In this document: piece by piece, positions 12,713-62,263 of the stretch
How positions within the stretch are numbered: the first letter of the stretch is position 1
Layout of the letters: every line of letters begins with the position of its first letter
Origin: Nitrospiria bacterium
GTDB taxonomy: Bacteria > Nitrospirota > Nitrospiria > Nitrospirales > NS-4
Direction of reading: 5' to 3'
Length of the DNA stretch: 64,000 nucleotides
Assembly (NCBI GenBank): GCA_041490525.1
Contig: JBGPTH010000004.1
Span: forward strand, 17,635 to 81,634
Translations under genes and position numbers: made by a program
Notes under the pieces: generated by a model
Database searches by the model: none
Told to the model about the DNA's origin: nothing
What the model saw: only the letters and a program-made list of their open reading frames with translations

Positions 12713-12734
12713 GACGCCAATTGCCCCAGACCCG
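12713..12734. promoter_or_regulatory. Candidate upstream activator element (copy A)
   Basis: GACGCCAATTGCCCCAGACCCG. The 13-mer TGCCCCAGACCCG is identical to 53649-53661, and GCCAATTGCCCCA is identical to 62245-62257. Lies 93 nt upstream of the -24 element. Confidence 0.4.
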
Positions 12735-12884
12735 TTGAAAGATTTCGTCCCGAAATTCCTCAGCGGACACCGACGCCGGTTCAGATTAAATCAGGCGTGG
12801 GGCATACGGGCGGGATTGTACCAGAATTCAGGTGCCCGTTGTGTTGACACGGCAAGAAGTGAAGTCTAGTCTTAGCTTCCTGGA

Positions 12885-13235
12885 TTGCTGGGTAGAGAAA
12901 AGGTGTCTGGAACCGTCTTTCAAATGATCTTTATCATTGTGCTTTGGTTCTCTTTCTTCGGACTTGCGCCTACTCAGGCGGCTGATCGGGGCTCGGCGTT
13001 GCAGTCGCCGGAACAACCCCCAGGCCCTTCCCAAACGTACCGCTCAATCACGCTCCGCATGACCAAGGAAGAAGTCCACCGATTGATGGGAAAGCCGTCC
13101 CGGTCAACCGATACGCTGTGGCTCTATACGTATGCGGATGGGACGACCGTGGAGGTCATCTTCTCGAAGAAGAGGCGCGTGACCCAGGTTGTCCATTATA
13201 AGAAGCAGCAGCAGTTCCCTCCGAAAGGGAAGTAA
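12885..13235 (+). CDS. Small secreted protein, SmpA/OmlA (BamE)-like (hypothetical)
   Basis: 116-aa ORF with a hydrophobic N-terminus (MIFIIVLWFSFFGLAPTQAA if started at 12924) and MTKEEVHRLMGKP. TTGACA-N17-TAGTCT lies about 40 nt upstream. Confidence 0.5.
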   Translation: MLGREKVSGTVFQMIFIIVLWFSFFGLAPTQAADRGSALQSPEQPPGPSQTYRSITLRMTKEEVHRLMGKPSRSTDTLWLYTYADGTTVEVIFSKKRRVTQVVHYKKQQQFPPKGK

Positions 13236-13251
13236 CAGAAACCGCATTGGA

Positions 13252-14064
13252 TCAGAATCCGATCGACAGCCCGACAGTGCCGAACACCGCAGATCGGTCG
13301 GAAGGCCCGGCGAACTCGGTTCCTAGGCCCCCATCCAATACGATTCGCGAGCTGAACTGATGGCGAAGTCCCACCTCGATTCCGGTGGGATTGCGGCCCC
13401 CGCTGAGGTCCGACTGGCGGGTGAACACGTCCGCGATCAGCGTTTCTCGGAACCGCATGGGATATCCTAGCGGATAACTCACGCCCAAAGCCAGGCGGTA
13501 CAGTCCATCGCGCTCTCCTCCTCGAGCGGAGCCCACGACCGTGTACTCCACATTAAGATGCGTCCGCCAACGGCCGAATGAGCGCGTCAGAATGCCGGCC
13601 AGCGTGCCATCCACGCCCTTTGAGCGAACGCCGGTCGGAAACTCCAGGTCGAGCTTCACGGCCAGCGCCGGCAGACTGAGCGTCTCCGTGTTGAGGTTGT
13701 ACAGGACGCCGACACGCACGTCTCCGGACTTCTCGGCACCTTCCACCGAAGTCGGCTCCGTAACCAGGTCTCCGCCGATCTCAAGCTGCGTGTTATAGAA
13801 CGCTCCGTACAGCACTTGCGGCTGGAACACGAACCGGGTTCTCCCCTGCCGCCGGTCCACGAATCGGGCACCACCCTCCAGGCCAAACTCGCCCTTTGCT
13901 AAAGGATACGCATCCTCGATCCGGAGCGGGCGGTTCTTGTCGAGGTTGTCGTGATCAAGCGCCCAGGCTGGCGGGAGGCCCAGACAGAGAAGGAAGGTTA
14001 CAATACTGAGCAGGCAGCCTCGCATCAGGCATGCCAGCCTTTCATTGTTTCTCATGCCGGTCAT
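13252..14064 (-). CDS. Putative outer-membrane beta-barrel protein
   Basis: 270-aa ORF with a signal-like MRGCLLSIVTFLLCLGLPPAWA, alternating beta-strand pattern and terminal Phe (LSIGF). Start is uncertain (14064, 14055 or 14025). Confidence 0.5.
   Translation of the reverse strand: MTGMRNNERLACLMRGCLLSIVTFLLCLGLPPAWALDHDNLDKNRPLRIEDAYPLAKGEFGLEGGARFVDRRQGRTRFVFQPQVLYGAFYNTQLEIGGDLVTEPTSVEGAEKSGDVRVGVLYNLNTETLSLPALAVKLDLEFPTGVRSKGVDGTLAGILTRSFGRWRTHLNVEYTVVGSARGGERDGLYRLALGVSYPLGYPMRFRETLIADVFTRQSDLSGGRNPTGIEVGLRHQFSSRIVLDGGLGTEFAGPSDRSAVFGTVGLSIGF
14021..14036 (-). promoter_or_regulatory. Sigma-54-like 16-mer TGGCATGCCTGATGCG (anomalous position)
   Basis: Matches the promoters at 24840-24855 and 43003-43018 at 14 of 16 positions each, but overlaps candidate start ATG 14025 of the beta-barrel ORF. 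Confidence 0.3.
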
Positions 14065-15010
14065 GCTTCATTTCTTGTTTCTGCCCGATCATCGGATTCG
14101 TGGCGTCGGCGCTCTCGAGATAGTAGCTGTCCAGGATCCGGTAAATTTCCGCCCGCTTGGCTTCCCGGGTGGGGAATAGATCACTGACCAAAATGTCGCT
14201 GATGTTGTCGTGGAGCATGTGGAGGTTATCGAAGATGTTCGCGATCTCGGGATAGCGGGCCGCGAACTTCGGGCTCAATTCGGCCGTCAGGGGCATGAAG
14301 GTCCATTCCACCGGCGGCCGCTGGAGATATCCATGGTACATCATTAAGATAGGCCGCACGACCGTCCGCTTGGCTGCCAGGTCCGGAGCGGCTTGCAGCA
14401 CGTCATACACGGCGACTTGGAGGTAGTGATAGGCCCAGATGGTGGCGTTGAAGAGCGGGAACTTCCACCGGAAGGCCTTCGAATACGGAAACTGGTCGAG
14501 GCGGCGGTGGTCCAGTCGTTGAGCGGTAATCGCGTAGGGGCTCTGCCGGTAGAAGGCCAGGGCCTCCTGGAGCGCGGCGTTTTTGTCGGTGATGATGGCG
14601 GAGACGTAGATGTCGTACGTGGCGCGGTGCAGTGCATGCGCTTCATCGAAGGCGTTCTGCGCGCGCCAGGCCAGCTTCATGTAGGTGGGGGCGATCGCCT
14701 CTTCGTTCGGCGGAAGGACCGGTCTCGACGCAATGAACCGCAGGGTCTGCCCGCGCGCCTCCTCTTCGACGGCCGGGACGCTCTTGGCGCCGGTGACCAG
14801 CAAAGTCTCATAAAGATGCGAATGGCCGAAGTCCACGCCGTTGAACTCGATGTCGAGCTCGGGAAGATCGTCGCGAAGCGCGAAGTTCCAGACGGCCCGG
14901 TCATAAAACCGCTTGTCGCGCGGCTCGAATTGGGCTGGCACGATCGAAGCGGAAAGCGCCGCAAGAGCCAGCAGGAATATCAGAATAGCAAGCAAGCGAT
15001 CAGGCCGCAT
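14042..15010 (-). CDS. Secreted hypothetical protein
   Basis: 322-aa ORF with signal peptide MRPDRLLAILIFLLALAALSASIVPA. No family recognised. Confidence 0.5.
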   Translation of the reverse strand: MRPDRLLAILIFLLALAALSASIVPAQFEPRDKRFYDRAVWNFALRDDLPELDIEFNGVDFGHSHLYETLLVTGAKSVPAVEEEARGQTLRFIASRPVLPPNEEAIAPTYMKLAWRAQNAFDEAHALHRATYDIYVSAIITDKNAALQEALAFYRQSPYAITAQRLDHRRLDQFPYSKAFRWKFPLFNATIWAYHYLQVAVYDVLQAAPDLAAKRTVVRPILMMYHGYLQRPPVEWTFMPLTAELSPKFAARYPEIANIFDNLHMLHDNISDILVSDLFPTREAKRAEIYRILDSYYLESADATNPMIGQKQEMKHDRHEKQ

Positions 15011-15111
15011 GGCGCCTCACCTCTTTGGATTCCTGGACTGGATACCCTTACGTCTGTGGCTGACTGAACTGCCTCACTGAGGAAGGGAGTGCCGCCAGAC
15101 GGACAAAGACC

Positions 15112-15996
15112 CTACCGCCTGAACACCAGCACCGAACACGGGGCGTATTTGATGACGCCGTCGGAGACGCTGCCCATGAGGAATCGGGTGGTGCCGGAGA
15201 GCCCGCGGGAGCCGACGACGGCCAGATCGGCGCGCTCGGCCTCGGCCAGTTTCACGATCTCGTGGCTCGGATGTCCGTGCACAACCGCGGTGCTCACCTG
15301 AAAGCCAGCCTTTTCGATGCGCTCGGCAGCCTGCTTCGCGATCGTATGGGCCTCTTCGATGAACGGGGCCCGCACCCGGTCGAGAAGAGCCCCCTCCAGC
15401 GGCGGTTCCATCGAGGCCTCGATCGGGAGCGGAGGGACGACCGAAACGACCGTCAGGTGGGCCGCTTCCGGCAAGGGCATCTGAAGGAGAAACTCGAGGC
15501 CGGCCCGCGCGTCCTTGGAAGCATCCATGCCCACGACGATCCGTCTGAGCACCGGCACCCGCTTCTTGACCAGCAGCACCGGACAGCCGGCGTGCACCAC
15601 GACCTTGCGCGACACGCTGCCCAGCAGGAAGGCCCGGACATCCGTCAGCCCCCGCGAGCCCATCACGATCATGTCGGCTTTCAGCTTCGCCGCCGTCCGC
15701 ACGATGCTCTCGGCCGGGTGCCCGCGCACGAGGCGGCTGTCCACGGTTCCCCAAACAGGAGAGAGCGCGGCCTTCTCGCGCGCCAACACGGTCCGGCCGG
15801 TCTCCTCCGCCAGGCCCAGCGCCTGCCTCATGGCGTCCTCGGCCCCCTCCCCCGCTCCCCGGTGGGGCTTGTACTTGGCGGTGTCCACCATGTGCACGAG
15901 CACCAGCGCCGACCCCCGAGGAAAGGGCCAGCGCCGCAGCGCCTCCAGCGCCCACTTCGAATGCTTCGATCCGTCCACCGCGCAGAGGACCTTCAT
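15112..15996 (-). CDS. Universal stress protein, tandem Usp domains
   Basis: MKVLCAVDGSKHS... plus a second domain VVGMDASKDA... Both have G-x2-G-x9-G(S/T)V ATP-type motifs. ATG 15996 is preceded by AGGAGA. The track start is 16023. Confidence 0.85.
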   Translation of the reverse strand: MKVLCAVDGSKHSKWALEALRRWPFPRGSALVLVHMVDTAKYKPHRGAGEGAEDAMRQALGLAEETGRTVLAREKAALSPVWGTVDSRLVRGHPAESIVRTAAKLKADMIVMGSRGLTDVRAFLLGSVSRKVVVHAGCPVLLVKKRVPVLRRIVVGMDASKDARAGLEFLLQMPLPEAAHLTVVSVVPPLPIEASMEPPLEGALLDRVRAPFIEEAHTIAKQAAERIEKAGFQVSTAVVHGHPSHEIVKLAEAERADLAVVGSRGLSGTTRFLMGSVSDGVIKYAPCSVLVFRR

Positions 15997-16015
15997 GCCG
16001 GATGCTCTCCTGCCC

Positions 16016-17044
16016 TTAGTCACGCTCGTTCATGTAGGCCGCCGTCTCCTCCGGCACCGCGGTATTGATGAAGATGCCGGACCCGATCTCGAACCCCGCG
16101 ACGGTGGTCAGGCGAGGGATGATGCACAGATGCCAGAGGAAATAGGGCTTGTTCTCGTCCTCGATGGGGGCCGAGTGGACGACAAAGTTGTAGTCCGGGT
16201 CGTTGAGATGCCGAGAGATCTTTGAAAGGACAGCCGCGAGGACCCGGGCGAACCGCTTGGCCTCGTCCGTCGAAATCTGCCCGAAGGAGGGGACGTGGTG
16301 GGTCGGGGCGATCCAGGTCTCGAACGGCGAGCGCGAGGCGAAGGGATGGAAGGCGACGAACCCCTCCCCTTCAAAGACCACCCGCTCCTTCGCCTTCCGC
16401 TCCTCCTTCACCACGTCGCAATAGATGCACCCGCCGGTGTCGTCGTAGTACTGGGTGGCCACCGTGTATTGGGCGCGAAGGTGCTCCGGAACGATCGGCG
16501 TGCCGACGATCTGGGCGTGCGGATGCACGAGGGACGTCCCGGCCGCCTCCCCATAGTTCTTGAACAGGATGACGGCCTTCACGGAGGGGGCCTCACCGAG
16601 CGCCAGGTACCGGTCCCGGTACATGAGGACGGCTTCCTGCGCCTGGTGATCCGACAGGAGGGCGAACGGCAGGTTGTGCGCCGGGGTTTCGATGATGACC
16701 TCGTGCCGGCCGACGCCGGCCATCCGCCGGAAATAATGGTCGCCGCTGCGGTCACCGGAGGCCTCGGGAGCGAGCGCCGGGAACCGATTGGGGACCACCC
16801 GCACCCACCACCCGGGCGCGTTCGGGCTGCCGACCCGAAAGGCGGCCACTTCGGGCGGGGTCGATGCCTCGTTGCCGGGACAGAAGGGGCAAGACGGGTC
16901 GGAGGCCGGGCGCTCAGGAGGCTCTCTCCGGGACCGGAACTCGTCCGGTCGCCGGGCGCGATCCCGGGCAATGATCACCCACTCCTTCGTGAAGGGATTC
17001 TGGCGCAGTTCAGACATGGGCGGGCGGATTGTCTCACAGGGCAT
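16016..17044 (-). CDS. galT: Galactose-1-phosphate uridylyltransferase-family (GalT/HIT-like) nucleotidyltransferase
   Basis: CPFCPGNE zinc motif and HPHAQIV active-site HxHxQ motif. Start uncertain (17044 or 17017). Confidence 0.75.
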   Translation of the reverse strand: MPCETIRPPMSELRQNPFTKEWVIIARDRARRPDEFRSRREPPERPASDPSCPFCPGNEASTPPEVAAFRVGSPNAPGWWVRVVPNRFPALAPEASGDRSGDHYFRRMAGVGRHEVIIETPAHNLPFALLSDHQAQEAVLMYRDRYLALGEAPSVKAVILFKNYGEAAGTSLVHPHAQIVGTPIVPEHLRAQYTVATQYYDDTGGCIYCDVVKEERKAKERVVFEGEGFVAFHPFASRSPFETWIAPTHHVPSFGQISTDEAKRFARVLAAVLSKISRHLNDPDYNFVVHSAPIEDENKPYFLWHLCIIPRLTTVAGFEIGSGIFINTAVPEETAAYMNERD

Positions 17045-17129
17045 TCGGGAATGCCAGGCTCGCGCGAGGCGTCCCTTTCCATCGCAGGCTCAACAAGGGT
17101 AGAATACCGGAATTCTCGGAGCCTGGATC

Positions 17130-17783
17130 ATGCACGAACACTACCAGATCAATGTGTTGGCCAAGGAGGAATCGTGGCGTCTGTTTCGGATCATCGGCGA
17201 GTTCGTGGAGGGCTTCGACGCGCTGCCCAAAGTCCTTCCCGCCGTGACGATTTACGGAAGCTCCCGGGCCGACCCCGGCACGTGGGCCTATGCGACCGCC
17301 GAAAAGACCGCGCGCGCCCTGGCCCAGAAGGGCTTCTCGATCATCACGGGGGGCGGGCCCAGCGTAATGGAGGCGGCCAACAAGGGGGCCTTCGAGGGCG
17401 GGGGGAAGTCGGTTGGCCTGAACATCGACATTCCGGTGGAGCAGGTCTCGAACCGCTATACCACGCTCTCCCTGAAGTTCCACTACTTCTTCGTCCGGAA
17501 GGTCATGCTGGTCAAGTACGCGACCGCCTTCATCCTGTTCCCGGGGGGATTCGGGACGCTGGACGAGCTCTTCGAGATCGCCACCTTGATCCAGACCGAA
17601 AAGCTCCAACCCTTTCCGGTAATTCTAATGGGACGGTCGTACTGGAGTGGGCTCCTGGAATGGCTCCGGACCCAGGTGGTCGGCCACGAGTTTCTGGACC
17701 CGTCCAGTCTCGACCTGTTCACGATCACGGACGATGTCCAGGAGGTGGTGACCATCATCGAGAATTGTTGTCGCCCCACCTGA
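17130..17783 (+). CDS. LOG-family / TIGR00730 Rossmann-fold nucleotide-binding protein
   Basis: GGGPSVMEAANKGAFEGGG and PGGFGTLDELFE motifs. Confidence 0.8.
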   Translation: MHEHYQINVLAKEESWRLFRIIGEFVEGFDALPKVLPAVTIYGSSRADPGTWAYATAEKTARALAQKGFSIITGGGPSVMEAANKGAFEGGGKSVGLNIDIPVEQVSNRYTTLSLKFHYFFVRKVMLVKYATAFILFPGGFGTLDELFEIATLIQTEKLQPFPVILMGRSYWSGLLEWLRTQVVGHEFLDPSSLDLFTITDDVQEVVTIIENCCRPT

Positions 17784-17833
17784 ACGCTCTTCGAGGGTTG
17801 CGACGGAGAGAAGAGACGAGGGGTTCCAGTTAA

Positions 17834-19642
<1,809 letters not shown>

Positions 19643-19666
19643 CGAGAGCCGTCCGCAAGACCGCCC

Positions 19667-20209: not shown

Positions 20210-20279
20210 CGCTCCTCCTCGGCCTCCCGTTGTTGAACTGGATGATCAGGATAAGTCCCCCAAGAGTCAACCCCCCGTC

Positions 20280-21377
20280 TCAGACCGCGATCGCCCAGCG
20301 GCCCTCGATGAAGCCCGCACAGTTCGGACAGCGTCCGGCGCTGAGCCGATTCTGCACCAATCCCACTCCGCGCCGCCGGATGACCCTGTCGCCGCAGAAC
20401 GGACAGACCGTGTCCTCACCGCCCTCCTCTTCCGGCGCATTGCCCACGTAAACGTACCTGAGTCCGGCTTCGCGCCCGATCTCGCGAGCGCGCCTCAGCG
20501 TGGCGAGCGGGGTCTCCTCGACGTCGGCCATCTTGTACGCCGGATAGAACCGGCTGAGGTGCCACGGCACGGATTCGCCGAGGTCCGTCCGGATGAAGGC
20601 CGCCATCTCCCGCAATTCCATTTCATCATCGTTCAGCCCGGGGATGATCAGCGTCGTCAATTCGATCCATACGCCCAGTTGCTTGTACAGCCGGATCGCC
20701 TCGAGGATCGGTTGCAGCCGGGCCCCGCAGACCCGCTTGTAAAAGCCGTCGCGAAAGGATTTGAGGTCGATGTTCGCCGCGTTCAGATAGGGAGCGATCT
20801 CGCGCAAGGGCGCCGGCGCGATGAATCCGTTGGTCACGAAGATATTGCCGAGGCCAGCCTCCGACGCCGCCCGGGCCGTGGCAAGGGCGAGCTCGAAAAA
20901 GATCGTCGGCTCGGTGTAGGTATAGGCGATGGAGGCCGCTCCCGAACGGGCCGCCTCCGCGACCAGCTCCGAGGGCATTACGCGCGTCCCCAACGCCGTC
21001 TCGTCTGGCTGGGCGGCCAGATCTGGACACACGACCTCGCCGGGATGATCGGAGGGCGGCTCCGGATGCCGCAGCTTGGGCCATTGGGAGATGAGCCAGT
21101 TCTGACAGAACAGGCAGCGCAAGTTACACCCCACCGTCGCGATCGAGTAGGCCCGGCTCCCCGGCAGGAAGTGGAACAGCGGCTTCTTCTCGACCGGGTC
21201 CACGTCGCAGGCGACCACCCGGTCGGCCACCAGCGTGTACAGCCGCCCGTCGTGGTTGACCCGCACCCCGCACGCCCCTCGATGGCCCGGCGCGATCTTA
21301 CAGTCGTGCGGGCACAGCGTGCAGAGCACGCGCCCATTCGGAAGACTCTCGTAATATAGCGCCGCCTGGAGATTCAT
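20280..21377 (-). CDS. AmmeMemoRadiSam-type radical SAM enzyme (AmrS-like)
   Basis: CNLRCLFCQNW radical-SAM cluster motif, N-terminal CTLCPHDC...GACGVR motif and DPVEKKPLFHFLPG. ATG 21377 follows GGGGAGGAGG. Confidence 0.8.
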   Translation of the reverse strand: MNLQAALYYESLPNGRVLCTLCPHDCKIAPGHRGACGVRVNHDGRLYTLVADRVVACDVDPVEKKPLFHFLPGSRAYSIATVGCNLRCLFCQNWLISQWPKLRHPEPPSDHPGEVVCPDLAAQPDETALGTRVMPSELVAEAARSGAASIAYTYTEPTIFFELALATARAASEAGLGNIFVTNGFIAPAPLREIAPYLNAANIDLKSFRDGFYKRVCGARLQPILEAIRLYKQLGVWIELTTLIIPGLNDDEMELREMAAFIRTDLGESVPWHLSRFYPAYKMADVEETPLATLRRAREIGREAGLRYVYVGNAPEEEGGEDTVCPFCGDRVIRRRGVGLVQNRLSAGRCPNCAGFIEGRWAIAV

Positions 21378-21447
21378 GTGCCTCCTCCCCAACCTGCCGC
21401 ACGGATCGATATGAGGATCGCCCCGGCCGTTCGAAGTTCCCTCAAGG

Positions 21448-22032: not shown

Positions 22033-23241
22033 TCAACAGACTCCGTACTCGCCCCGCGCCAGCGCCTCGCAGAACGGCCCGATCTCGGCCAGCGCGTCCC
22101 GAACATGGCGGCGCACCGCCGGCTCCACCGTCTTCAGGCTGATGCCCCGACGCAAGGCTACCTCCACCGCCGCAAGCCGCGGCGAGGAGACCGGCCGGCC
22201 GATCTCGCTCGTGAGCCAGACCGTGACCTCCCGGAGCCCCCCGACCGTACGCAGGATCCGTTCCGCCAGGACCTGGGCCAGCACGGTGTAGATCTTCCCG
22301 ACGTGCGCGACCGGATTCTTGCCCGCGGCCGCCTCGGCGCTCGCCGGCCGCCCCAGCGAGATGACCCCGCACACCCGATTGCCCCGCCCCACCTCGCCGG
22401 AGTCCCCGGCCTCCGCCGACGTGCCGAGGAGCGAGAGATACATCCCCGCCACGCCGGCGCCCGGTCGGTCCAGCGTGTTCATGTGCACCCGCACGGTCAA
22501 GCCCGCCACGGCCTCTCCTTGCACAAAGCGCCGGATCGCCTCCTGCACCGCGGCCTTCCGTTCGAAGTAGGCTCTCTCCGACCGGATGGCCGAGGCCAGC
22601 AAGGGCATCGCGACGGTCACGGTCAGCGTGGGGCCGCTGCGGACCCCGAGCACCTTGACGTCCTCACCGGTCTCCGGAAACGCGGCCTTGAACGCTGCGC
22701 CGTTCAGAAACCGCTCCACGCCCAGCACGAGCCGCTCAGTCCGCGTCAGCGGCGCATAGCCGACCGCGGCGGAGGTATCGTTGGCCACCGGGACCTTCCG
22801 CCCGACCACGGACTGCAGCTCCGCCGACGCCGGCCTCAGCTCCACCTGACAGCGCAGGTGCTTCGCCGGGTCCACGTGCCGAAGGTGCGTCCGGAACCAG
22901 TCGTGCACCGCGCGCACGGCGACGTCCTTGACCGGCACGCGTTTCCGGCGCCATTCAAACGTCGCCCGGTCGCCGAGGACCAACCGCATCGGTTCAAGCA
23001 CGCGTCCCCCGCCCATCCGGCAATCCACCGCGCCCGCCACCAGCAGGCCTTTGTCCGCGTTAAAGTGGAGGACGCGGCCACAAATTTCCTGATAGGCCCG
23101 CGCCAGCCTGACCGCGACCTGCTCCATGACGGCGTCGCAGATCGTATCGGGGTGACCCAGACCCTTCCGTTCCACCACCTCGAGCGGCTGGGTCGCGATG
23201 GGACCGCGGGATGACTCCAGCACCTGGATCGAGGTGGTCAT
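22033..23241 (-). CDS. Archaeal-type S-adenosylmethionine synthetase (methionine adenosyltransferase)
   Basis: VERKGLGHPDTICDAVMEQV near the N-terminus and 402 aa length fit the archaeal MAT family. The true ATG 23241 forms an ATGA overlap with the upstream stop. The 86-aa N-terminal extension in the track is spurious. Confidence 0.7.
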   Translation of the reverse strand: MTTSIQVLESSRGPIATQPLEVVERKGLGHPDTICDAVMEQVAVRLARAYQEICGRVLHFNADKGLLVAGAVDCRMGGGRVLEPMRLVLGDRATFEWRRKRVPVKDVAVRAVHDWFRTHLRHVDPAKHLRCQVELRPASAELQSVVGRKVPVANDTSAAVGYAPLTRTERLVLGVERFLNGAAFKAAFPETGEDVKVLGVRSGPTLTVTVAMPLLASAIRSERAYFERKAAVQEAIRRFVQGEAVAGLTVRVHMNTLDRPGAGVAGMYLSLLGTSAEAGDSGEVGRGNRVCGVISLGRPASAEAAAGKNPVAHVGKIYTVLAQVLAERILRTVGGLREVTVWLTSEIGRPVSSPRLAAVEVALRRGISLKTVEPAVRRHVRDALAEIGPFCEALARGEYGVC

Positions 23242-24125
23242 CCGAACCCACCATGACCTTCTTGGTCTGGCTCCCGGTAGTACGCCGCGCACTCGGCTTC
23301 CCGGCCGCGGACAATGCGCTTGCCTTTCAGCGGGTCCTGCTGCGCGGTGATGACGGTGCACTGGTGCTCCCCGCGCCCGTCGTCGAAGTACAGGATTACC
23401 CAGTCGCGGGTCTTCCCCAATTGATGTGCCCGCGCCGTGTTCGAGAACAGCACCGTATAATGCCGCGACCCTCGCTGAGTGTGCAGGACCGGAAGCCACG
23501 CCTCGCCGGTCGGGTTAAACCGCCTCGGCGAGATCGTGCGAAGCGTTCCGGCCGCGGCCCTCTCCCGATATTCACGGTCCACTTCGAGCAGTTCGCCGAC
23601 CGAGGTCTCCAGGCCCGGCGCACGGGGCGCCGTCTCGCCGAATCGTCCCCGCACGCGCCCGAGCCGGCCCGCCAATGAATCGATGATGCCCGCCAGCCTC
23701 TTCTCTCCGATCCCGGCGATCTCAGAGAGCCGCCCATCGTGGGCGGCCGTCTCCAACTCCTCCAGCGTGTCGATGCCGAGATCGTGGTGCAGCCGCTTGG
23801 CCATGGCCTCGCCGATTCCCGGCACCGAGGCCAACAGCGTGACCGGGTCGGCCTCCCCCCGCAATCGGTCCAGCATGGGAAGCCGCCCCGTATTCACCAG
23901 ATCCCGGATCGACCGCGCGAGGCTTTCGCCGATCCCGGGCAATTGCTGGAGCCCTTCCATCCCCTCCGCGTTCAGGATGTCCGTCACCGGACGCTCCAGG
24001 CGATGCAAGGTCTCGCCGGCGCGGCGGTACGCCTGGACCCGAAAGGGGTTGGCCCCCTGCTCCTGGAGCAGGCGCGCCACCTCTTTCAGGCGCTGGGCGA
24101 TTTCGTCATTGAGCATCTCGGCCAT
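23238..24125 (-). CDS. Helix-hairpin-helix protein resembling the N-terminal (8-kDa/fingers) part of family-X DNA polymerases, without a catalytic domain
   Basis: LNDEIAQRLKEVARLLQEQGANPFRVQAYRRAGETL and repeated GIGE HhH motifs. The C-terminal half (RRFNPTGEAWLPVLHT...RIVRGREAEC) has unknown function. Start is 24125 (ATG) or 24155 (GTG). Confidence 0.6.
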   Translation of the reverse strand: MAEMLNDEIAQRLKEVARLLQEQGANPFRVQAYRRAGETLHRLERPVTDILNAEGMEGLQQLPGIGESLARSIRDLVNTGRLPMLDRLRGEADPVTLLASVPGIGEAMAKRLHHDLGIDTLEELETAAHDGRLSEIAGIGEKRLAGIIDSLAGRLGRVRGRFGETAPRAPGLETSVGELLEVDREYRERAAAGTLRTISPRRFNPTGEAWLPVLHTQRGSRHYTVLFSNTARAHQLGKTRDWVILYFDDGRGEHQCTVITAQQDPLKGKRIVRGREAECAAYYREPDQEGHGGFG

Positions 24126-24839: not shown

Positions 24840-24855
24840 TGCATCACGCATGCCA
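24840..24855 (-). promoter_or_regulatory. Sigma-54 promoter TGGCATGCGTGATGCA
   Basis: Exact GG-N10-GC spacing. Only 14 nt separate it from ATG 24825, implying a near-leaderless transcript. Confidence 0.55.
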
Positions 24856-25003
24856 TCTAATGGTTGCGGCTCATCCGGACCGATCAGGAGAGGGAGCACA
24901 AGGGAAATTCCCCCGCTTCCGTCAGCGAAGACAAGAAATCCCACGGGCATCACAACGAGAAAATGCCCTAAAATGCCACAACGGAAAGAATGAAAGTGTG
25001 GAG

Positions 25004-27994: not shown

Positions 27995-28176
27995 TCAGGA
28001 TTCACCCCCTTTCTATCTCAAAAGCGCCTCTACCATGCCCAAAACTGCCCAGGAAAGCAACACTCGGGAAACAAAAATTGGTGACAAATGCGACAGGCCC
28101 GATCCATGTTCGGTTTCGCATTCTCGTAGGGGTGTGTTTTCTGGCCGGAAATCCCGCCGCCGTTCACTGGTCTCGC

Positions 28177-28192
28177 TGGTATCGACCTTGCA
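28177..28192 (+). promoter_or_regulatory. Sigma-54 promoter TGGTATCGACCTTGCA
   Basis: Exact spacing, 38 nt before ATG 28230, with a GAGGG Shine-Dalgarno in the leader. Confidence 0.55.
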
Positions 28193-31597: not shown

Positions 31598-31613
31598 AGC
31601 AAGGGCAATACCA
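31598..31613 (-). promoter_or_regulatory. Sigma-54 promoter TGGTATTGCCCTTGCT
   Basis: Exact spacing, 53 nt before ATG 31544. Divergent partner of the promoter at 31866-31881. Confidence 0.55.
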
Positions 31614-31865
31614 TCGGGGCCGGGAGATGGAACCGGTGGATTCCGTGGAAATCCAGGATATTGCGGCCGGAGGCCCGAATCTCAGGAAGGGGCAGGGGGA
31701 AATCCTGCTACAATCGCACCCTCCTTGATGTAGTGAAAAGCCACAGCGCCGGAGAGCCCGACCCTATCCCATCCCACGAAGCTCCGGACCAATCTCCAGA
31801 GGAACCTCCCGCCAGGTAACGTGATCTTTCAGGGACAGCACGCCAGAGGGCGACCGCGAGAGCCA

Positions 31866-31881
31866 TGGCATCGGTTTTGCG
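31866..31881 (+). promoter_or_regulatory. Sigma-54 promoter TGGCATCGGTTTTGCG
   Basis: Exact spacing, 92 nt before ATG 31974, with a GAGGAGGAG Shine-Dalgarno. Confidence 0.6.
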
Positions 31882-34757: not shown

Positions 34758-35219
34758 TTACTGAGCCGCCCGCTTGCCTGCGCTCAGAGGAGTCGGGTTC
34801 GTCCCTTCTCCGGAGGATTCCCCCAGGGCCTCCTCCACCATCCGGAGGAGCGCCGCCTCTTTATCCTGCGTGCAAAGGATCAGACAATGATAGGCCCCCG
34901 GACTGATGGCACGGGCGTTTCTCCCGATCGGCCAAGGAAACGGGTTCACGATGACCGGGATCTCCGGATACTTTTCGCGTAGCACAGACGTCAACTGCCT
35001 GCTTCCCATCCCGCGCAGGTGCTCTCCGATCACCACCGCATCAAACCGGACCTGCCGCAGGTATTGTAACCCCTGGTGAGACGAGGATACGGCCCGAACC
35101 TTGTATGGGCCCTCGGCGAGCGCGCGCTTCGTCCATTGACGCCGGAACTCATAATCGTCCACCACAAGGACATAGAAGGGGCTTTCCCTGCTTGAATGAT
35201 CGATCGGTGTCGGGACCAT
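34758..35219 (-). CDS. Stand-alone receiver-like domain, apparently lacking the phospho-acceptor Asp
   Basis: FYVLVVDDYEF...FDAVVIGEHLRGMG has Gly where the acceptor Asp is expected. I trimmed the track ORF (to 35552) because sigma-54 promoters at 35245-35260 and 35500-35515 lie inside its 5-prime part. Confidence 0.5.
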   Translation of the reverse strand: MVPTPIDHSSRESPFYVLVVDDYEFRRQWTKRALAEGPYKVRAVSSSHQGLQYLRQVRFDAVVIGEHLRGMGSRQLTSVLREKYPEIPVIVNPFPWPIGRNARAISPGAYHCLILCTQDKEAALLRMVEEALGESSGEGTNPTPLSAGKRAAQ

Positions 35220-35244: not shown

Positions 35245-35260
35245 GGCAAAAGAAATGCCA
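35245..35260 (-). promoter_or_regulatory. Sigma-54 promoter TGGCATTTCTTTTGCC
   Basis: Exact spacing. Its first 15 nt are identical to the promoter at 37051-37066. Confidence 0.6.
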
Positions 35261-35499
35261 TCCATCCATCACAGTCGGGAGCACCGAAGAGGCCGATCTG
35301 CCAACTTGTTCCCGGGCAATTAGCGGGGATGGCCTCCAAGGGAGAGAAATTATGATGCGCTTTTCCCCAGGCAGGCCAGCTAGAATGTACTGAAACGCCA
35401 CAGAACGATTCGAAGCCGAGATCCCAGAGAATTAGCAAGAGAGGCGGCCCGACGGGATCTTCCTTTGACCACCTGCCTTTCTCGTCAGCCCCGATTCCA

Positions 35500-35515
35500 T
35501 GGCATTCCCCTTGCG
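35500..35515 (+). promoter_or_regulatory. Sigma-54 promoter TGGCATTCCCCTTGCG
   Basis: Exact spacing, 56 nt before ATG 35572, with a GGAAGGAGG Shine-Dalgarno. Confidence 0.6.
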
Positions 35516-36004: not shown

Positions 36005-36515
36005 TCAATCTCCGTGTAGCATTGGGGCAAATCGCACCAGATTGGGTTTCTTGATTAAGGTACCCGAACGAATGGAAAAGCGAGTCCGCATGGAACGCGG
36101 GATGGCTCCGACCCCGCATTCGTCGTCAAGAGTCTCGGCCACAACGATGACATCCGGGTCTTTAAAATCAACCGAGGGAGTCTGACCCCGCACCATCAGG
36201 CGCTCACGAAGGGCTCCGTCCAGTTCTTGCTCCACATGCTGACTGTGAATCTCCCCCGCATGCCCGCGCCGCGAACCCGAAAGTTCGGTCGATCGGCACC
36301 AGCTTGGACAACGGATCGAGAAATCCGGGTTCCTCTTCTTCGTGCCGCCGCAGTTCCTCAAAAAAAGCTTCAGGCTCCTTCACCCGCCCGACCAGGACTC
36401 CCAGAAACCGGGTCCGTCGAAAATTCCCGAAGCGCCGCAACAGTCCCGCCAGACGGCGTTGTTCCATGTCCTTCGCCGTGGCGAGCACATTCCAGTTTTC
36501 AAGGCCCTTTACCAT
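36005..36515 (-). pseudogene. THUMP-like domain gene split by an apparent +1 frameshift near 36272
   Basis: Frame A reads MVKGLENWNVLATAKD...LSKLVPIDRTFGF up to ~36273. Frame B continues RRGHAGEIHSQHVEQELDGALRERL...VDFKDPDVIVVAETLDDECGVGAI. The span is 511 nt, which is 170 codons plus 1 nt. Confidence 0.4.
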
Positions 36516-37050: not shown

Positions 37051-37066
37051 CGCAAAAGAAATGCCA
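37051..37066 (-). promoter_or_regulatory. Sigma-54 promoter TGGCATTTCTTTTGCG
   Basis: Exact spacing, located in the 74-nt gap after the Mut7-C gene. Confidence 0.6.
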
Positions 37067-43002: not shown

Positions 43003-43018
43003 TGCATCATGCATGCCA
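43003..43018 (-). promoter_or_regulatory. Sigma-54 promoter TGGCATGCATGATGCA
   Basis: Exact spacing, 28 nt before ATG 42974, with a GGAGGAGG Shine-Dalgarno. Confidence 0.6.
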
Positions 43019-43217
43019 GCAAGAAGCGCCCGCAACTCGCGCTGCGACCGCACCTCTCAACCGCTGCCTGTGGCATCTCGCGCCAGTGCCGAAAGGCTGT
43101 GGCGTGGTCTTTCTCCCCATCCCCTGGTGGATTCTTACGGTCGCGCAGGCATCGCCGGCGGAATGATCAGACACGCACGCGGTAGTGGTCCCCGCCTCCG
43201 CTCTTCAAGTCCCCGCG

Positions 43218-53462: not shown

Positions 53463-53531
53463 AGCGTATCCTCCTTTGTGATGATAGCTTTTTTGAGTCC
53501 GTTGGCCAAATTCCCTCTCCCTACTGGACCA

Positions 53532-53547
53532 CGCAAGAGAAATGCCA
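53532..53547 (-). promoter_or_regulatory. Sigma-54 promoter TGGCATTTCTCTTGCG
   Basis: Exact spacing, 69 nt before ATG 53462. Confidence 0.65.
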
Positions 53548-53639
53548 CCACGTTCCCCCGCCGCCGGCGCCGGAACCATCAAGAAATGAGGCGGTTAGAG
53601 GAAGGTCTATGGGGATAGCCGGAAGGGGGCGATCACGTT

Positions 53640-53661
53640 GGCGCACCCTGCCCCAGACCCG
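53640..53661. promoter_or_regulatory. Candidate upstream activator element (copy H)
   Basis: GGCGCACCCTGCCCCAGACCCG. The 13-mer TGCCCCAGACCCG is identical to 12722-12734. Lies 102 nt upstream of the -24 element. Confidence 0.4.
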
Positions 53662-53699
53662 CTTCCTGGACCGTCCTGAAATGCCACAGCCCTCCGCCC

Positions 53700-57690: not shown

Positions 57691-58660
57691 GCAGCATCTC
57701 TTGCACGGTCTTCACGATGGCGGCTGCCTGGGGCAACGCCGCGTCCTCCAGATGCTTCGGGTAGGGCATCGGCACTTCGGCGCTGCACACGCGCGCCACG
57801 GGGGCATCGAGGTCGTAGAAGGCGCCTTCCATGATCCGCGCGCTGATCTCCGCCGCAAAGCTGCCCGTGCGCCAGGCCTCGTCCACGATCACGGCCCGAT
57901 GGGTCTTCCCCACGGAGGCCAGGATCGTCGGCGTATCCAACGGCCGGAGCACGCGGAGATCGATGACCTCGGCCTCGATCCCGGAGGAGGCAAGCTGGTC
58001 GGCGGCTTCCAGCGTCTTCCACAGCGACCCCCCGAACGTGATCAGGGTGACATCGGTGCCCGGCCGGCGCACCGCCGCCGTTTTGATGTCCACGGGGCCG
58101 GCATTGTCATCCAGTTCCCCTTCCATGGGATAGAGCATGGCGTGCTCAAAGATGAAGACCGGGTCCGGCTCGCGGAGCGCGGTCAGCAGCATCCCCTTCG
58201 CGTCGGCCAGCGTCGCGGGGGTGACCACCTTGATTCCGGGAATGTGCGCATACCAGCCCTCCAGGCTGTGGGAATGCTGCGCCGCGACCTGGCGCCCCGC
58301 GCCCGTGGCCATGCGGACGATGAGCGGCACGCTGAACTGGCCGCCGGACATGTGCCGGATGGCGGCCGCATTGTTGACGATTTGGTCCAGGGCCAGCAGG
58401 CTGAAGTTCACCGTCATCACCTCGACGATCGGCCGCATCCCGCCGAGCGCCGCGCCGATGCCGGCCCCGACGAAGGTGGACTCCGACAGCGGCGTGTCGC
58501 GCACCCGCTCGGGCCCGAACTCTTCCAGGAGCCCGTGGCTGCACGCGTAGCTGCCGCCGTAGCGGCCGACGTCCTCCCCCATGAGGAAGACGCGCGGGTC
58601 GCTCGTGAGCGCCTCCCGAAGCCCGGCCCGCACCGCCTCGCGGTACTTCATCTTGATCAT
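57683..58660 (-). CDS. 2-oxoacid (pyruvate/acetoin-type) dehydrogenase E1 beta subunit
   Basis: [30 protein letters not shown] is a typical E1-beta N-terminus. Confidence 0.85.
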
Positions 58661-59646
58661 GGCGTGTACACGTCCCTGGTCAGCTCCTCGACGGGCTCCC
58701 AGGGGCCGGCTTCCGCGAAGGCGACCGCGTCCGCGATCTCCGCGTCCACGGCCGCTTCGATCGTGGCCCGATCCGCATCCTTGAGGAGGCCGTCCTCGCG
58801 AAGCCGCTCTTCAAACGTCACGATCGGATCGCGCTTCTTCCACTGCTCGACCTCCTCCTTGTTCCGGTAGAGTTCCGGGTCGTACATCGAATGGGCGCGG
58901 AACCGGTAGGTCCGGAATTCAATCAGGTACGGCCGCATCTCCCCTCGGACGATCTCTACGGCCCGTCGCGTGGCGTCCTCGACCGCGAGCACATCCATGC
59001 CGTCCACCGCCTCGCCCGGCACGCCGTCGCCTTTCGCCTTGAGCGTGATGTCGGTCTGGGCCTGGTGCCGGGCCAGGGCCGTCCCCATCGCGTACAGGTT
59101 GTTCTCGCAGAGAAAGAGCACGGGCAGCTTCCAGAGTGCGGCGAGATTGAGCGATTCGTGAAACTCCCCCTCCGCCACCGCGCCGTCGCCGAAGAAGCAG
59201 GCGGTCACGCGCGCCCGCCCCTGGAGCTTGTCGGCGAGGGCCAGGCCGACCGCGACCGGCAGGCCCCCGCCCACGATCGCCAGGCCGCCGTAAAAGCGCC
59301 GCGCGGCGTCGAAGAAATGCATGGACCCCCCGCGCCCGCGGCTGCAGCCGTTGGCCTTCCCGTACAGTTCCGCCATCAGCGGCCCTGCCGGCGTCCCCCG
59401 CACGAGCGAGTGCCCGTGCTCGCGATAGGTAGCGACGATGGCGTCATCCGGCGTGAGCGCCTGGATCGCGCCGACCGCCACGGCTTCTTCGCCTATGTAT
59501 AAATGTAGGAACCCGCGGATCTTCCCGGCGCTGTACAACTCCACCGACTTCTCCTCGAAGCGGCGGATGCGCAACATCTCATGAAACAGCTTGATCCCAT
59601 GCGCGCGATCCAGAGGCGGCTGGCCCGCTTCCACGAAGCAGTCCAT
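58657..59646 (-). CDS. 2-oxoacid dehydrogenase E1 alpha subunit (TPP-binding)
   Basis: LRIRRFEEK...[11 protein letters not shown] and GDGA..EG.FHE.LN.A TPP motif. Confidence 0.85.
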
Positions 59647-61440
59647 TCAACTTCCCTCCAACGTCGACGTGTCCCCCTCGGGCAGCCCAAGTTCACGGGC
59701 CTTGAGCAACCGCCGCATGATCTTCCCGCTCCGGGTCCTGGGCAGGGTCGCCAGGAACTCGATCTCCTTCGGCGCGACCACCGCGCCGAGCCTGGTCCGG
59801 GCAAATCCCAACAACTCGCGCCGCAGCTCGGGGGTCGCCTCGTACCCGTCCTTGAGCGAGACGAACGCCTTGACCACCTCCAGCGCCACCGGGTCGGGCT
59901 TTCCGATCACGCCAGCCTCGGCCACCGCCTTGTGCTCCATCAACACGCTCTCGACCTCAAACGGCCCGATCAGATGCCCGGAGGTCTTGATCACGTCGTC
60001 CGTGCGCCCGACGAACCAGAAGTACCCGTCCTTGTCCCGCTTGGCGAGATCGCCGGTGAGATACCAGCCGCCGAGGAAGCATTTCTGGTAGCGCTCCGGC
60101 TCGTTCCAGTAGCCCCGGAACATGGACGGCCATCCGGGCTTGAGCGCCAGCTCGCCCTGGACGTCGGCCTCCACGATTTCTTCGACCCCGCCGTCGGCGG
60201 TCTTCCGCACGACCGCCGCCTCAATTCCCGGCAGGGGCCGGCCCATCGACCCGGGCCGGATATCCATGGCGGCGTAGTTGGCGATCATGATCCCCCCCGT
60301 CTCGGTCTGCCACCAATTATCGTGGAACGGGAGCCCGAATGCCCGCTGGCCCCAAACGACGGCTTCGGGGTTGAGGGGCTCGCCGACGCTGGCAAGGAAG
60401 CGGAGCGTGCGGAGGTCGTATTTATGGATGGGGTCGAGGCCTGTCTTCATCATCATGCGGATGGCGGTCGGCGCGGTGTACCAGACGGAGACGCGTTGGT
60501 CCTGGAGGATGCGGTACCAGCGCTCGGCGTCGAAGTCGGCTTCATCCACAATGCTGGTGATCCCGTTCGTCAAGGGGGCGATGACGCCGTACGAGGTGCC
60601 GGTCACCCAGCCCGGATCGGCCGTGCACCAGAAGACATCGTCCTTGTGCAGGTCCAGAGCGAGCTTGCCCGTGATGTGGTGGGCAACGACTGCCTGGTGG
60701 ACGTGGACTGCGCCTTTGGGCGTGCCGGTGGTCCCGCTGGTGAAGTGCAGCAGCGCCCTGTCTTCCGGAGCGGTCGGCCCGATCGTGAACCGGTCGGACG
60801 CTTGCTCCATCAGCCGAAGATAGTCGCGCGTGCCGGCCACATCGGTCGGCTGGTGATCGTCCCCGACGAGGAGGACATGCTCAAGGTCGGGCAAGGAGGC
60901 GCGCAGCCCCTCCACCTTGCGATGGTAGAGCGACTCCGTCGTAACGAGGACCTTGGCCTGGCCGATCGTCATCCGTGCGCGGATGGGCTCGGGCCCGAAG
61001 GCCGAGAACAGGGGGCAGAAGACGCTCCGGTGTTTCAGCGTCCCGAGGGCGGCGATATAGAGCTCGGGAATCCGGCCCGCCAGGGCATACACCCGATCCC
61101 CGGGGGCCACGCCCAGCCCGTGCAGCACGTTGGCAAAGCGGTTCGTGAGGTCCCGAAGCGAGGCATAGGTGTAGTCCCGGACCTCGCCGGTCTTGCCAAG
61201 CCACCGCAGCGCGAGGTGGTCCCGGCGGGCGTGCGCCGCGTGACGATCAACCGCCTCATGGGCGATATTGAGCCCCTTTTCGCCCGGAAGGCCGTCCAGT
61301 TCGCGGCGGGCGCGGTCCCAGGAAAAGGCCGCGCGGACCTGGCCGTAGTCGTGGAGATTCGGGATGACCGCCCCCCAGTCCCGCCGTGATTTTATGATCG
61401 TCTCCCAGCCCATCGTGTGAGCTGTCTCCGGATGAATCAT
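59647..61440 (-). CDS. AMP-forming acetyl-CoA synthetase-like ligase (AcsA type)
   Basis: 597 aa with an AMP-binding signature ([12 protein letters not shown]), a C-terminal SGKIMRR and an AcsA-like N-terminus ([10 protein letters not shown]). Its stop abuts the E1-alpha start with no gap. Confidence 0.8.
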
Positions 61441-62105
61441 CCGCGTGCGGGCTTGTCCCGCCCGCGCAAGGCCGCAGCGGCCTCCTTCAGGTATCGGACG
61501 ACGGTCGCATCATCCACCTGCCTGAAATCCGCATAGTGATTGCCGACGGCGAAGAACGGGTCCGGCGTCTCGAGGACGACCACCTCATCCACGGTCTTTC
61601 CGACCAGGCGAATCGTATCAGGGGGGGCCACCGGGATCCCCGCCACCAGGCGTTTCACGTGAAGCTGCCGGAGCGCCTCGGCCGACGCCAGGAACGTGGC
61701 CCCCGTGGCGATCCCGTCATCGACCAGCAACACCGTTCGTGCAGTCAGGTCCGGCAAGGGTCGCCCGCCCCGGTACAGGACTTGCCGCCTGACGATCTCT
61801 TCCTGTAAGGCCCGCCGGGCTTGTTCCACATACTCGGCGGGAATCATGTACGCCTCGATCGCGTCCCGATTGAGATGGATCGACCCGGTCTCGGCCACCG
61901 CGCCGAGGGCGAATTCCGGATTGTCCGGAGCCCCCAGTTTGCGCGTGATGAATACATCCAGAGGGAGGCCCAGGGCCAGGCTCAGCGTATAGCCTACCGC
62001 CACCCCGCCCCGGGGCAAGGCCAGGATGAGGGCCGTCGGATCATTCCGATAAGCGCTCAACCGCTTTGCCAGCAGCCGGCCTGCTTCTTCGCGATCTTGA
62101 AACAT
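61437..62105 (-). CDS. Phosphoribosyltransferase-family protein
   Basis: [16 protein letters not shown]...ILALPRGGV and [17 protein letters not shown] motif. ATG 62105 is chosen because the track start at 62138 lies inside the sigma-54 promoter. Confidence 0.75.
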
Positions 62106-62133
62106 CGGCGCTCCGCGTTCAGGTTCCTGTTTG

Positions 62134-62149
62134 AGCAAGGCCAGTGCCA
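62134..62149 (-). promoter_or_regulatory. Sigma-54 promoter TGGCACTGGCCTTGCT
   Basis: The best consensus match in the window (TGGCAC-N5-TTGCT), 28 nt before ATG 62105. Confidence 0.7.
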
Positions 62150-62241
62150 GAGGGCCCTTCCAATTCGGTCCCCAATCCTATATTGTTTCAACCGGTTAAC
62201 GAGGAGCCATTCAAGAGGAAGACTAACGTGAACGGCAGCCT

Positions 62242-62263
62242 GTTGCCAATTGCCCCAAGAGGG
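62242..62263. promoter_or_regulatory. Candidate upstream activator element (copy B)
   Basis: GTTGCCAATTGCCCCAAGAGGG shares GCCAATTGCCCCA with 12716-12728. Lies 102 nt upstream of the -24 element. Confidence 0.35.

Follow-up and report, generated by a model that had tools for sequence, protein, structure and literature searches.

We analyzed a 64,000-nt stretch of the genome of a Nitrospiria bacterium (assembly GCA_041490525.1, contig JBGPTH010000004.1, positions 17,635 to 81,634; referred to here as the window), in which two 13-mers recur upstream of three sigma-54 promoters. These 13-mers probably mark the proximal half of a two-part enhancer, the upstream activating sequence (UAS) of a bacterial enhancer-binding protein (bEBP), that is present at almost all sigma-54 promoters of a stress island of approximately 60 kb in this uncultured member of the Nitrospiraceae. 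This reading is based on sites with dyad symmetry, two per promoter and approximately three helical turns apart, that lie 100 to 150 nt upstream of the -24/-12 elements and are common to divergent promoters. Coordinates are those of the whole window, and distances are counted from the TGG of the -24 element to the left edge of the unit.

The 19-bp unit and its pairing

The strict sigma-54 pattern TGGYAY-N5-TTGC was seen nine times in the window (0.32 expected), and the window is therefore unusually rich in sigma-54 promoters. An initial annotation of this DNA had placed the two 13-mers upstream of three promoters (promoters 1, 2, and 3 below), and its placements were correct: TGCCCCAGACCCG occurs exactly at 12722-12734 and 53649-53661, with no other mismatch-free copy, and GCCAATTGCCCCA occurs exactly at 12716-12728 and 62245-62257. 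The shared orientation (all 13-mer copies on the plus strand, all three promoters on the minus strand) and the offsets of the core (93, 102, and 102 nt upstream of promoters 1, 2, and 3, respectively) were likewise confirmed.

Chance agreement was simulated with 13 random, nonoverlapping 140-nt regions of real sequence from the same window, scoring matches of 13 nt or longer at matching offsets. Two such pairs arose in 2 of 20,000 trials (p ~1e-4), in line with the previous statement that offset-matched 13-mers are unlikely by chance; in the same simulation, the probability of at least one single 13-mer repeat between random regions was ~0.07. Over the whole window, the 7-mer core TGGGGCA showed no enrichment (12 copies versus 13.8 expected), and it is therefore the position that counts. 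A chance match in a GC-rich genome could appeal to these last two figures, but the offset-matched pairs and all of the cross-genome tests described below contradict it; we give this explanation practically no credence and consider it refuted as far as sequence analysis allows.

The 13-mers correspond to the left half and center of a 19-bp pseudo-palindromic unit, in its promoter-proximal copy at all three promoters. The consensus of 58 distinct sites was CTGkGGCrTTTCrGGACAG, with positions T2, G3, G6, T10, C17, and A18 near-invariant. Positions 1 to 3 (CTG) are complementary to positions 17 to 19 (CAG), and G6/C7 pairs with G13/C14, so that the unit has the form CTGTnGC-N5-GCnACAG with CTGT/ACAG ends (i.e., TGT-N11-ACA or TG-N13-CA). 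Perfect 7-5-7 palindromes were present among the sites (e.g., CTGTCGCAATCTGCGACAG), and 19-mers such as CTGAGGTATTTGGCAACAG and CTGTCCCGAAACGCCACAG recurred upstream of sigma-54 promoters in 80 related genome loci (the relatives; L-numbers denote single loci or contigs). The consensus given earlier had captured genuinely conserved sequence, limited to the left half and center of the unit, while the CGGGT flank common to the copies at promoters 1 and 2 is outside the unit and is not conserved elsewhere.

At each of the three promoters, a second (distal) unit that had been missed is located 33 to 34 nt further upstream, in the same orientation as the proximal unit. The features are listed below; bit scores are from a matrix built on the relatives only, and L023 belongs to a Nitrospirales metagenome-assembled genome (MAG).

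12614-12629, minus strand: promoter 1 (sigma-54), TGGTACtacctTTGC / TGGTACTACCTTTGCG; near-identical in L023
12667-12679, plus strand: IHF-like site, AATCATACGGTTA; in a conserved A/T-rich block between the UAS and promoter 1
12711-12729, minus strand: predicted proximal UAS of promoter 1 (site 1), CTGGGGCAATTGGCGTCAC; -100; 19.6 bits; L023 counterpart, CTGTCGCAATTGTCCTCAC
12745-12763, minus strand: predicted distal UAS of promoter 1, CTGAGGAATTTCGGGACGA; -134, 34 nt from proximal; 19.0 bits
53532-53547, minus strand: promoter 2 (sigma-54), TGGCATttctcTTGC / TGGCATTTCTCTTGCG
53638-53656, minus strand: predicted proximal UAS of promoter 2 (site 2), degenerate, CTGGGGCAGGGTGCGCCAA; -109; <5.5 bits
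53671-53689, minus strand: predicted distal UAS of promoter 2, CTGTGGCATTTCAGGACGG; -142, 33 nt from proximal; 21.5 bits, the window's best
62134-62149, minus strand: promoter 3 (sigma-54), TGGCACtggccTTGC / TGGCACTGGCCTTGCT
62240-62258, minus strand: predicted proximal UAS of promoter 3 (site 3), TTGGGGCAATTGGCAACAG; -109; 21-26 bits with relatives-only matrices
62274-62292, minus strand: predicted distal UAS of promoter 3, ATGGGGATTTTCGGGGCGC; -143, 34 nt from proximal; 7.1 bits; closely resembles ATGGGGTGTTTCGGGGCGA of L023

At site 2, the left half and the terminal CA fit the motif, and the position is that of the proximal site of orthologous Hsp20 promoters. The A/T-rich block at promoter 1 (AACCGTwTGATTCAGGTyyGAAATTTT) is conserved in L023. 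A match to the IHF-like pattern WATCAA-N4-TTR at -50 was confined to two efflux promoters (promoter 1 and 4021-4036) and is therefore no general feature.

Two side observations concern the surroundings of these sites. A third motif-like stretch, (G)CCCGTATGCCCCA(C), at 12798-12811 (minus strand; approximately 170 to 183 nt upstream of promoter 1) is below the matrix threshold and similar to the reverse-oriented proximal units of L026 and L047 (CCCGAAATGCCCCAC). Beyond promoter 3, the minus-strand open reading frames (ORFs) at 62334-63485 and 63501-63962 appear spurious, with a plus-strand gene extending from ~62400 to beyond 64000; according to the gene calls of the parent contig, it encodes an 802-aa LonC-type protease, is divergent from the phosphoribosyltransferase promoter (promoter 3), and runs past the window end. 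Given this plus-strand gene, site 3 is in a 295-bp divergent intergenic region.

Association with sigma-54 promoters and conservation in relatives

The relatives-only matrix was scanned over both strands of the window, and zones from 40 to 210 nt upstream of sigma-54 promoters (2.9% of the window) were defined. The 10 best distinct matches were all inside these zones, versus at most 3 of 10 for column-permuted matrices (300 trials). The scan added sites at eight further sigma-54 promoters beyond the three original ones. The initial annotation, with three copies and three to five promoters, had seen only the proximal copies; at least 11 window promoters carry the element. Promoters 24840-24855 and 4021-4036 (weak) were recognized only after following a match, and we regard a promoter found in this way as a successful prediction with some circularity. 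The additional features are as follows.

4131-4149 and 4165-4183, minus strand: site pair, CTGGAGCGTTTCGCTACAG (20.4 bits) and ATGTAGCAAGTGTCGTCAG (9.4 bits), 34 nt apart
4021-4036, minus strand: weak promoter, GGGAACgtcccTTGCA; site pair at -113 and -147; second czc-type efflux operon
24963-24981, minus strand: site, TTGTGGCATTTTAGGGCAT; -126; 16.7 bits
24840-24855, minus strand: promoter, TGGCATgcgtgATGCA; dienelactone-hydrolase-like gene; found via a matrix match, not listed before
28078-28096, minus strand: site, CTGTCGCATTTGTCACCAA; -99 of promoter 28177-28192 (plus strand); BON-domain protein operon
28045-28063: weak partner of the 28078-28096 site, 33 nt away
31728-31746, minus strand: site, CTGTGGCTTTTCACTACAT; common to divergent promoters 31598-31613 (minus strand; -133) and 31866-31881 (plus strand; -138)
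35385-35403 and 35352-35370, minus strand: site pair, CTGTGGCGTTTCAGTACAT (20.9 bits) and CTGGGGAAAAGCGCATCAT (8.7 bits), 33 nt apart
35245-35260, minus strand (receiver/GYD/Usp genes), and 35500-35515, plus strand (CBS gene): divergent promoters sharing the 35352-35403 pair
43068-43086, plus strand: site, CTGTGGCATCTCGCGCCAG; 17.6 bits; -68 of promoter 43003-43018
43003-43018, minus strand: promoter, TGGCATgcatgATGCA; tandem-Usp gene

The left edges are located at -100 to -147 at 9 of the 11 site-carrying promoters and at -99 and -68 at the remaining two; overall, the edges cluster near -145/-134 (distal) and -111/-100 (proximal). Pairing at 33 to 34 nt was not confined to promoters 1 to 3 and was also present at 4021-4036, 35245-35260/35500-35515, and 28177-28192. 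Window sites occur in both forward and reverse orientations, and the divergent pairs 31598/31866 and 35245/35500 have one common UAS each. Two weaker look-alikes had been proposed previously. The one at 35363-35375 belongs to the second site at 35352-35370, itself weak, and the one at 43113-43127 was not supported, the true site of that promoter being 43068-43086 (the L023 ortholog of this Usp promoter has the site CTGTGGCAACTCGCGCCAT at -69). A putative second site at 43097-43115 was dropped, being 29 nt from its neighbor rather than 33 to 34 nt. An orphan near-palindromic copy of the motif, TTGGGGCAAATCGCACCAG, was observed at 36022-36040 (14.3 and 12.7 bits on the two strands), just past the stop codon of the CBS gene, where it reaches into the 3' end of a THUMP-like ORF on the minus strand; neither strand has a sigma-54 promoter in range of this copy.

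The association extended to other genomes. In a reverse test, a matrix built from window sites only was applied to 1.15 Mb of Nitrospiraceae and Verrucomicrobiota contigs, and 22 of the 30 top matches adjoined sigma-54 promoters (forward sites, -131 to -148; reverse sites, -98 to -115). An independent set of metagenome loci (505 kb), retrieved with an unrelated query, yielded 19 matches at a cutoff of at least 14 bits, 15 of them at the same promoter distances, with only 20 promoter-pattern matches in total. In the relatives, 92 strict sigma-54 promoters were recorded; 53 had at least one site and 35 had two, with a spacing of 33 to 34 nt in 32 of the 35. Site pairs numbered 42 in 1.7 Mb, including 28 at strict sigma-54 promoters. 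An early check with the plain consensus had already placed 10 of 16 matches next to promoters, compared with 0.25 of 33 for shuffled motifs.

The units have centers of two types (TTTCGGG versus ATTGGCA). In the relatives, the pair is mostly convergent, with a forward distal unit (28 of 31) of the ATTTGGCAAC type facing a reverse proximal unit (33 of 35) of the TTTCGGG type. Window sites 1 to 3 and L023 have two forward units, with the types in the opposite order to that of the other relatives. Such flexible orientation combined with strict spacing would fit independent dimer sites. The site positions in the relatives form two registers approximately 11 nt apart; we make no claim of helical phasing because many promoters are orthologous and Rayleigh p-values are consequently inflated.

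The two unit types could also be read as sites of two different activators, one per type, with each promoter integrating two signals, possibly via the two bEBPs encoded by the candidate regulator locus described below. Nearly every promoter in the relatives pairs one unit of each type in fixed order and orientation, and sites 1 to 3 of the window likewise have one unit of each type. However, both types have the same invariant ends and the same length, intermediate forms exist (e.g., CTGTGGCATTTGGCAACAG in L013), and several promoters have a single recognizable site; we consider two activators rather improbable.

Conservation was assessed by phylogenetic footprinting. The window sequence was matched by a 130-kb Joint Genome Institute (JGI) metagenome contig and several MAG contigs, and the nearest genomes by Hsp20 (identity at most 76-78%) were Nitrospira, Nitrospiraceae, and Nitrospirales MAGs. 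Sixteen contigs with an identical Hsp20, from very close strains, were uninformative because their intergenic DNA was nearly identical. At site 1, the L023 ortholog has kept both units, the 34-nt spacing (distal counterpart, ATGGGGTGTTTCGGGGCGA, identically spaced), the A/T block, the promoter, and the ribosome-binding site, with the spacers diverged. In six Hsp20 promoters (the window and five orthologs), the distal unit and the promoter were the only invariant blocks, and window positions 53671-53689 align with the invariant CTGnGG..TTT....AC of the five orthologs. Sites were kept across genomes with Hsp20 proteins that were 60-77% identical. Footprinting of site 3 via phosphoribosyltransferase orthologs failed because this gene has no promoter of its own in 80 metagenome loci, where it comes after Hsp20 and the 67-aa membrane protein; these loci were reused as the independent test set.

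The UAS reading of the initial annotation is thus supported on the two points that had been named beforehand as decisive for it: weight-matrix scans found the motif enriched upstream of other sigma-54 promoters (in the window, the related contigs, and the independent metagenome set), and orthologous promoters retain the sites while their spacers diverge. The same comparison bears on whether the sites resemble each other only because promoter regions were duplicated, or because a repeat or mobile cassette is present, with no binding function. The island does contain paralogs (Usp, P-type ATPases, two czc operons, and two NMD3-like genes), with which promoters were possibly copied along. Yet the upstream regions have no alignable sequence apart from the 19-mers and the -24/-12 elements, unrelated genes lie downstream, and the sites outlast the divergence of Hsp20 proteins and spacers just described, all of which makes this origin very improbable.

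Other features of the Hsp20 and phosphoribosyltransferase loci were noted in passing. In several relatives, the first gene after the sigma-54 promoter encodes a protein of ~70-80 aa with the motif CP(D/E)LTWNQVF...D.LSR.G (L011, 6978-7200; L053, 5462 onward; L180, 11976-12215) and is followed by Hsp20; the window has no gene of this type, and Hsp20 directly follows the promoter. The Verrucomicrobiota Hsp20 loci do not have the Nitrospira motif. Their leaders (L031, L033, L045, L048, L059, L065, and L068; ~100 nt) contain GGCGGA...N20-30...(T)CCGCC, GAAAGG, and the start codon, an arrangement that could form an RNA hairpin around the ribosome-binding site, like an RNA thermometer. Heptad-like repeats of the GGTCTGTCTGGTC / GACCAGACAGACC type occur as long inverted repeats in Nitrospira intergenic regions (L060, 4680-4750; L179, 5431-5520; L180, 12770-12830; and L104 to L106, just upstream of the phosphoribosyltransferase gene). 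These repeats could be hairpins or REP-like (repetitive extragenic palindromic) elements, are variable between genomes, and are unrelated to the UAS.

Putatively regulated genes and the candidate activator

Promoter 1 precedes an operon for a 181-aa zinc-ribbon-like protein, a cupredoxin, and Cus/Czc-type RND efflux, and promoter 2 precedes genes for Hsp20, three Usp, the 67-aa membrane protein, and a DUF2934 protein. Behind promoter 3 are genes for a phosphoribosyltransferase, an AMP-forming ligase, 2-oxoacid dehydrogenase E1/E2, a carrier protein, and a P-type ATPase. Of the divergent promoters 31598 and 31866, one precedes genes for a bPH protein and a trypsin-like protease, and the other precedes genes for an NMD3-like zinc-ribbon protein and DksA/TraR. 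The other sigma-54-promoter genes of the island are two tandem-Usp genes, CBS, BON, PEBP, and dienelactone-hydrolase-like genes, and a receiver-GYD-Usp operon. Two NMD3-like zinc-ribbon genes (one of them followed by DksA/TraR) and two Cus/Czc-type RND efflux operons are located behind sigma-54 promoters. By annotation, the nonefflux genes resemble a dormancy-like stress set. Elsewhere in the window, an archaeal-type S-adenosylmethionine synthetase gene (22033-23499, minus strand; PF01941, E = 5e-140) was observed beside a radical-SAM gene (20280-21392).

From the sequences, positions, pairing, conservation, and sigma-54 association of the units, we infer binding by a bEBP, its oligomeric state, and a candidate for the protein. 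Each unit would be bound by one bEBP dimer via a C-terminal Fis-type helix-turn-helix, and two dimers would nucleate the active AAA+ oligomer. DNA looping would bring this oligomer to the closed sigma-54 holoenzyme complex, where ATP hydrolysis would open the promoter; IHF may assist the looping, though only at the pair of efflux promoters. With the element at 11 or more promoters, a single signal would switch on three groups of genes together, namely, the dormancy-like set (Hsp20, five Usp, CBS, BON, PEBP, and dienelactone hydrolase), the phosphoribosyltransferase-led operon, and the two RND metal-efflux operons.

A lead for the regulator was obtained from L060, in which a near-perfect palindrome pair, 33 nt apart, is flanked by a PAS histidine kinase gene on one side and an operon for a receiver and a bEBP on the other. 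Within Nitrospira, conservation of this operon's bEBP is high, with many clusters at 82-93% identity. In the candidate locus, a receiver-type bEBP (~459 aa) is followed by a multi-PAS histidine kinase and, after a gap of ~400 nt, by a stand-alone receiver and a second bEBP (~460 aa) whose N-terminal region is unassigned. This five-part locus was present in three further contigs, giving four distinct Nitrospira copies (L181 repeats L180). All four distinct contigs retain the site pair in the kinase-receiver gap as well as a second pair, TTGGGGCGTTCCTCCCCAA and CTGTGGCCTTTCGCGCCAG, upstream of the first bEBP; the latter pair is directly upstream of a sigma-70-like TTGACC-N18-TAGCCT. In Nitrospira sp. 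CG24E, sites with sigma-54 promoters follow the candidate locus and precede FtsH and the small protein that elsewhere precedes Hsp20. Regulon-type promoters also adjoin the locus in L180, and an Hsp20 gene is 3.3 kb from it in L060. The sequence context of this two-bEBP locus therefore offers a lead that points to autoregulation by the cognate activator.

Several other candidates were set aside. The bEBPs of L028, L052, and L081 have no nearby site pairs, and the L028 bEBP is not orthologous to the L060 bEBP in its N terminus. The stand-alone receiver of the window (34758-35171) is unrelated to that of the candidate locus. The sequence TGGTTAG...CTGCA, considered as a sigma-54 promoter of the locus, is present in only two of the four genomes. 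None of the candidate-locus proteins matched an NCBIfam equivalog at cutoff. A separate, strongly conserved block, GGCTTGCAyGGGTTrTGCAT (TGCA-N7-TGCA), was observed in the gap, with the site pair ~120 nt upstream of it (L060, 4589-4609; L178, L179, and L180, aligned position, columns ~190-212). It matches no sigma-54 consensus and no clear sigma-70 consensus, and the other regulator of the locus may bind there.

The site pairs of the candidate locus also bear on whether the sites are operators of a regulator other than a bEBP (a repressor, anti-activator, or architectural protein), with the true activator binding elsewhere or acting from solution. The pair upstream of the receiver-type bEBP gene abuts the sigma-70-like sequence, and no clear sigma-54 promoter accompanies the pair in front of the second bEBP operon; the motif can therefore act outside a sigma-54 context. 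No cognate bEBP was found by the search described below. On the other hand, the fixed placement at -100 to -148, the pairing at approximately three turns, the dyad symmetry, and the sharing by divergent promoters form a classic enhancer layout. NtrC-type activators bind sigma-70 promoters of their own operons as well (glnA/glnL), so that these two cases are no argument against a bEBP. We consider an operator of another regulator unlikely.

A number of observations weigh against a bEBP-bound UAS. GAFTGA and Walker motifs, phmmer with a bEBP AAA+ domain (as a check, because the GAFTGA regular expression overlooked GAFTDA-type proteins), and the called genes of the flanks yielded no bEBP gene, either within the window or in the ~10 kb that was read to its left and right. 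The candidate locus comes from contigs of relatives, and no convincing sigma-54 promoter follows its site pairs. No recognizable UAS unit was present within 210 nt of two good sigma-54-like promoters, 37051-37066 and 14021-14036 (both minus strand). The copy at site 2 is degenerate; sites 1 to 3 of the window form direct repeats, in contrast to the convergent pairs of most relatives; and the two unit types differ in their centers, leaving room for two different proteins. The counts given above overstate independent events because many related promoters are orthologs, and the case for bEBP binding to the 19-bp units is built from sequence. Regarding the two promoters with no unit, TGGCATttcttTTGCG (37051-37066; before the PEBP gene) and TGGCATgcctgATGCG (14021-14036), the upstream DNA is coding; they may depend on another activator or on remote sites, and 14021-14036 may be a chance match.

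Beyond the UAS itself, we tentatively propose that sigma-54 and one PAS-kinase-controlled two-bEBP system are the master switch of a dormancy-like general stress regulon of Nitrospira (>10 operons, metal efflux included), acting via a lineage-specific bipartite TGT-N11-ACA enhancer. We rate this possibility below an even chance.

Comparison with known systems

In the NtrC enhancer of Escherichia coli glnAp2, two strong dimer sites approximately three helical turns apart are located upstream of a sigma-54 promoter. The present element is similar in having two dyad sites of 17-19 bp, ~32-34 bp apart and >100 bp upstream of -24/-12, and in its presumed role, which would be to seed an activator oligomer and let it contact the promoter through a DNA loop. 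The resemblance is confined to this two-site layout. The element differs in sequence (TGCACC-N5-GGTGCA for NtrC versus CTGTnGC-N5-GCnACAG here, so that the derived consensus does not fit an NtrC site) and in the genes concerned, i.e., stress, dormancy-like, and metal-efflux genes rather than nitrogen assimilation. The NifA UAS is TGT-N10-ACA. It shares with our unit the invariant TGT/ACA ends, a variable center, a location upstream of sigma-54 promoters, and position dependence, but all aligned sites here have N11, a conserved center (GGCrTTTCrGG), and pairs 33 to 34 bp apart. No nif genes were found among the window genes read, and we do not count the element as a NifA UAS.

Nitrospira are the main nitrite oxidizers of soils, waters, and wastewater plants and are hard to grow; to our knowledge, almost nothing is known of the regulation of their stress survival. 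Our literature search returned no description of the 19-bp motif or of a Nitrospira sigma-54 stress regulon. Published surveys of sigma-54 regulons mention Usp and small heat-shock genes in other phyla (PMC12316311, PMC3162934) but include no Nitrospira analysis, UAS motif, or paired-site architecture. The kind of element (a bEBP UAS) is already known; the sequence and the Nitrospira regulon are a new instance, not a categorically new one, and the finding is for this reason useful rather than astonishing. The motif and its strict two-site layout make a large sigma-54 regulon accessible to computation and supply a concrete DNA probe with which to search for the activator and its signal. The results also suggest that, in the Nitrospira phylum, sigma-54 may fill the role played elsewhere by RpoS, SigB, or DosR.

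The DosR regulon of Mycobacterium tuberculosis includes several Usp, HspX (Hsp20 family), Rv2626c, Rv1997, and the putative phosphoribosyltransferase Rv0571c (PMC5309233). A second report gives at least two tandem regulator boxes per promoter as an architectural hallmark of DosR (PMC3177182). The gene content overlaps with that found here, efflux systems aside. In this comparison, we take Rv2626c to be a CBS-domain protein and Rv1997 to be a P-type ATPase. The differences are in the machinery and in the cargo: DosR is a NarL-type regulator that acts at sigma-70-type promoters from sites close to -35, whereas the Nitrospira sites belong to -24/-12 promoters and lie 100 to 150 nt upstream of them, and the genes found here include two RND metal-efflux operons. 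The likeness to DosR is functional and is not one of membership. If true, the proposed master switch would correspond in function to the mycobacterial DosRST system while using an entirely different transcription machinery.

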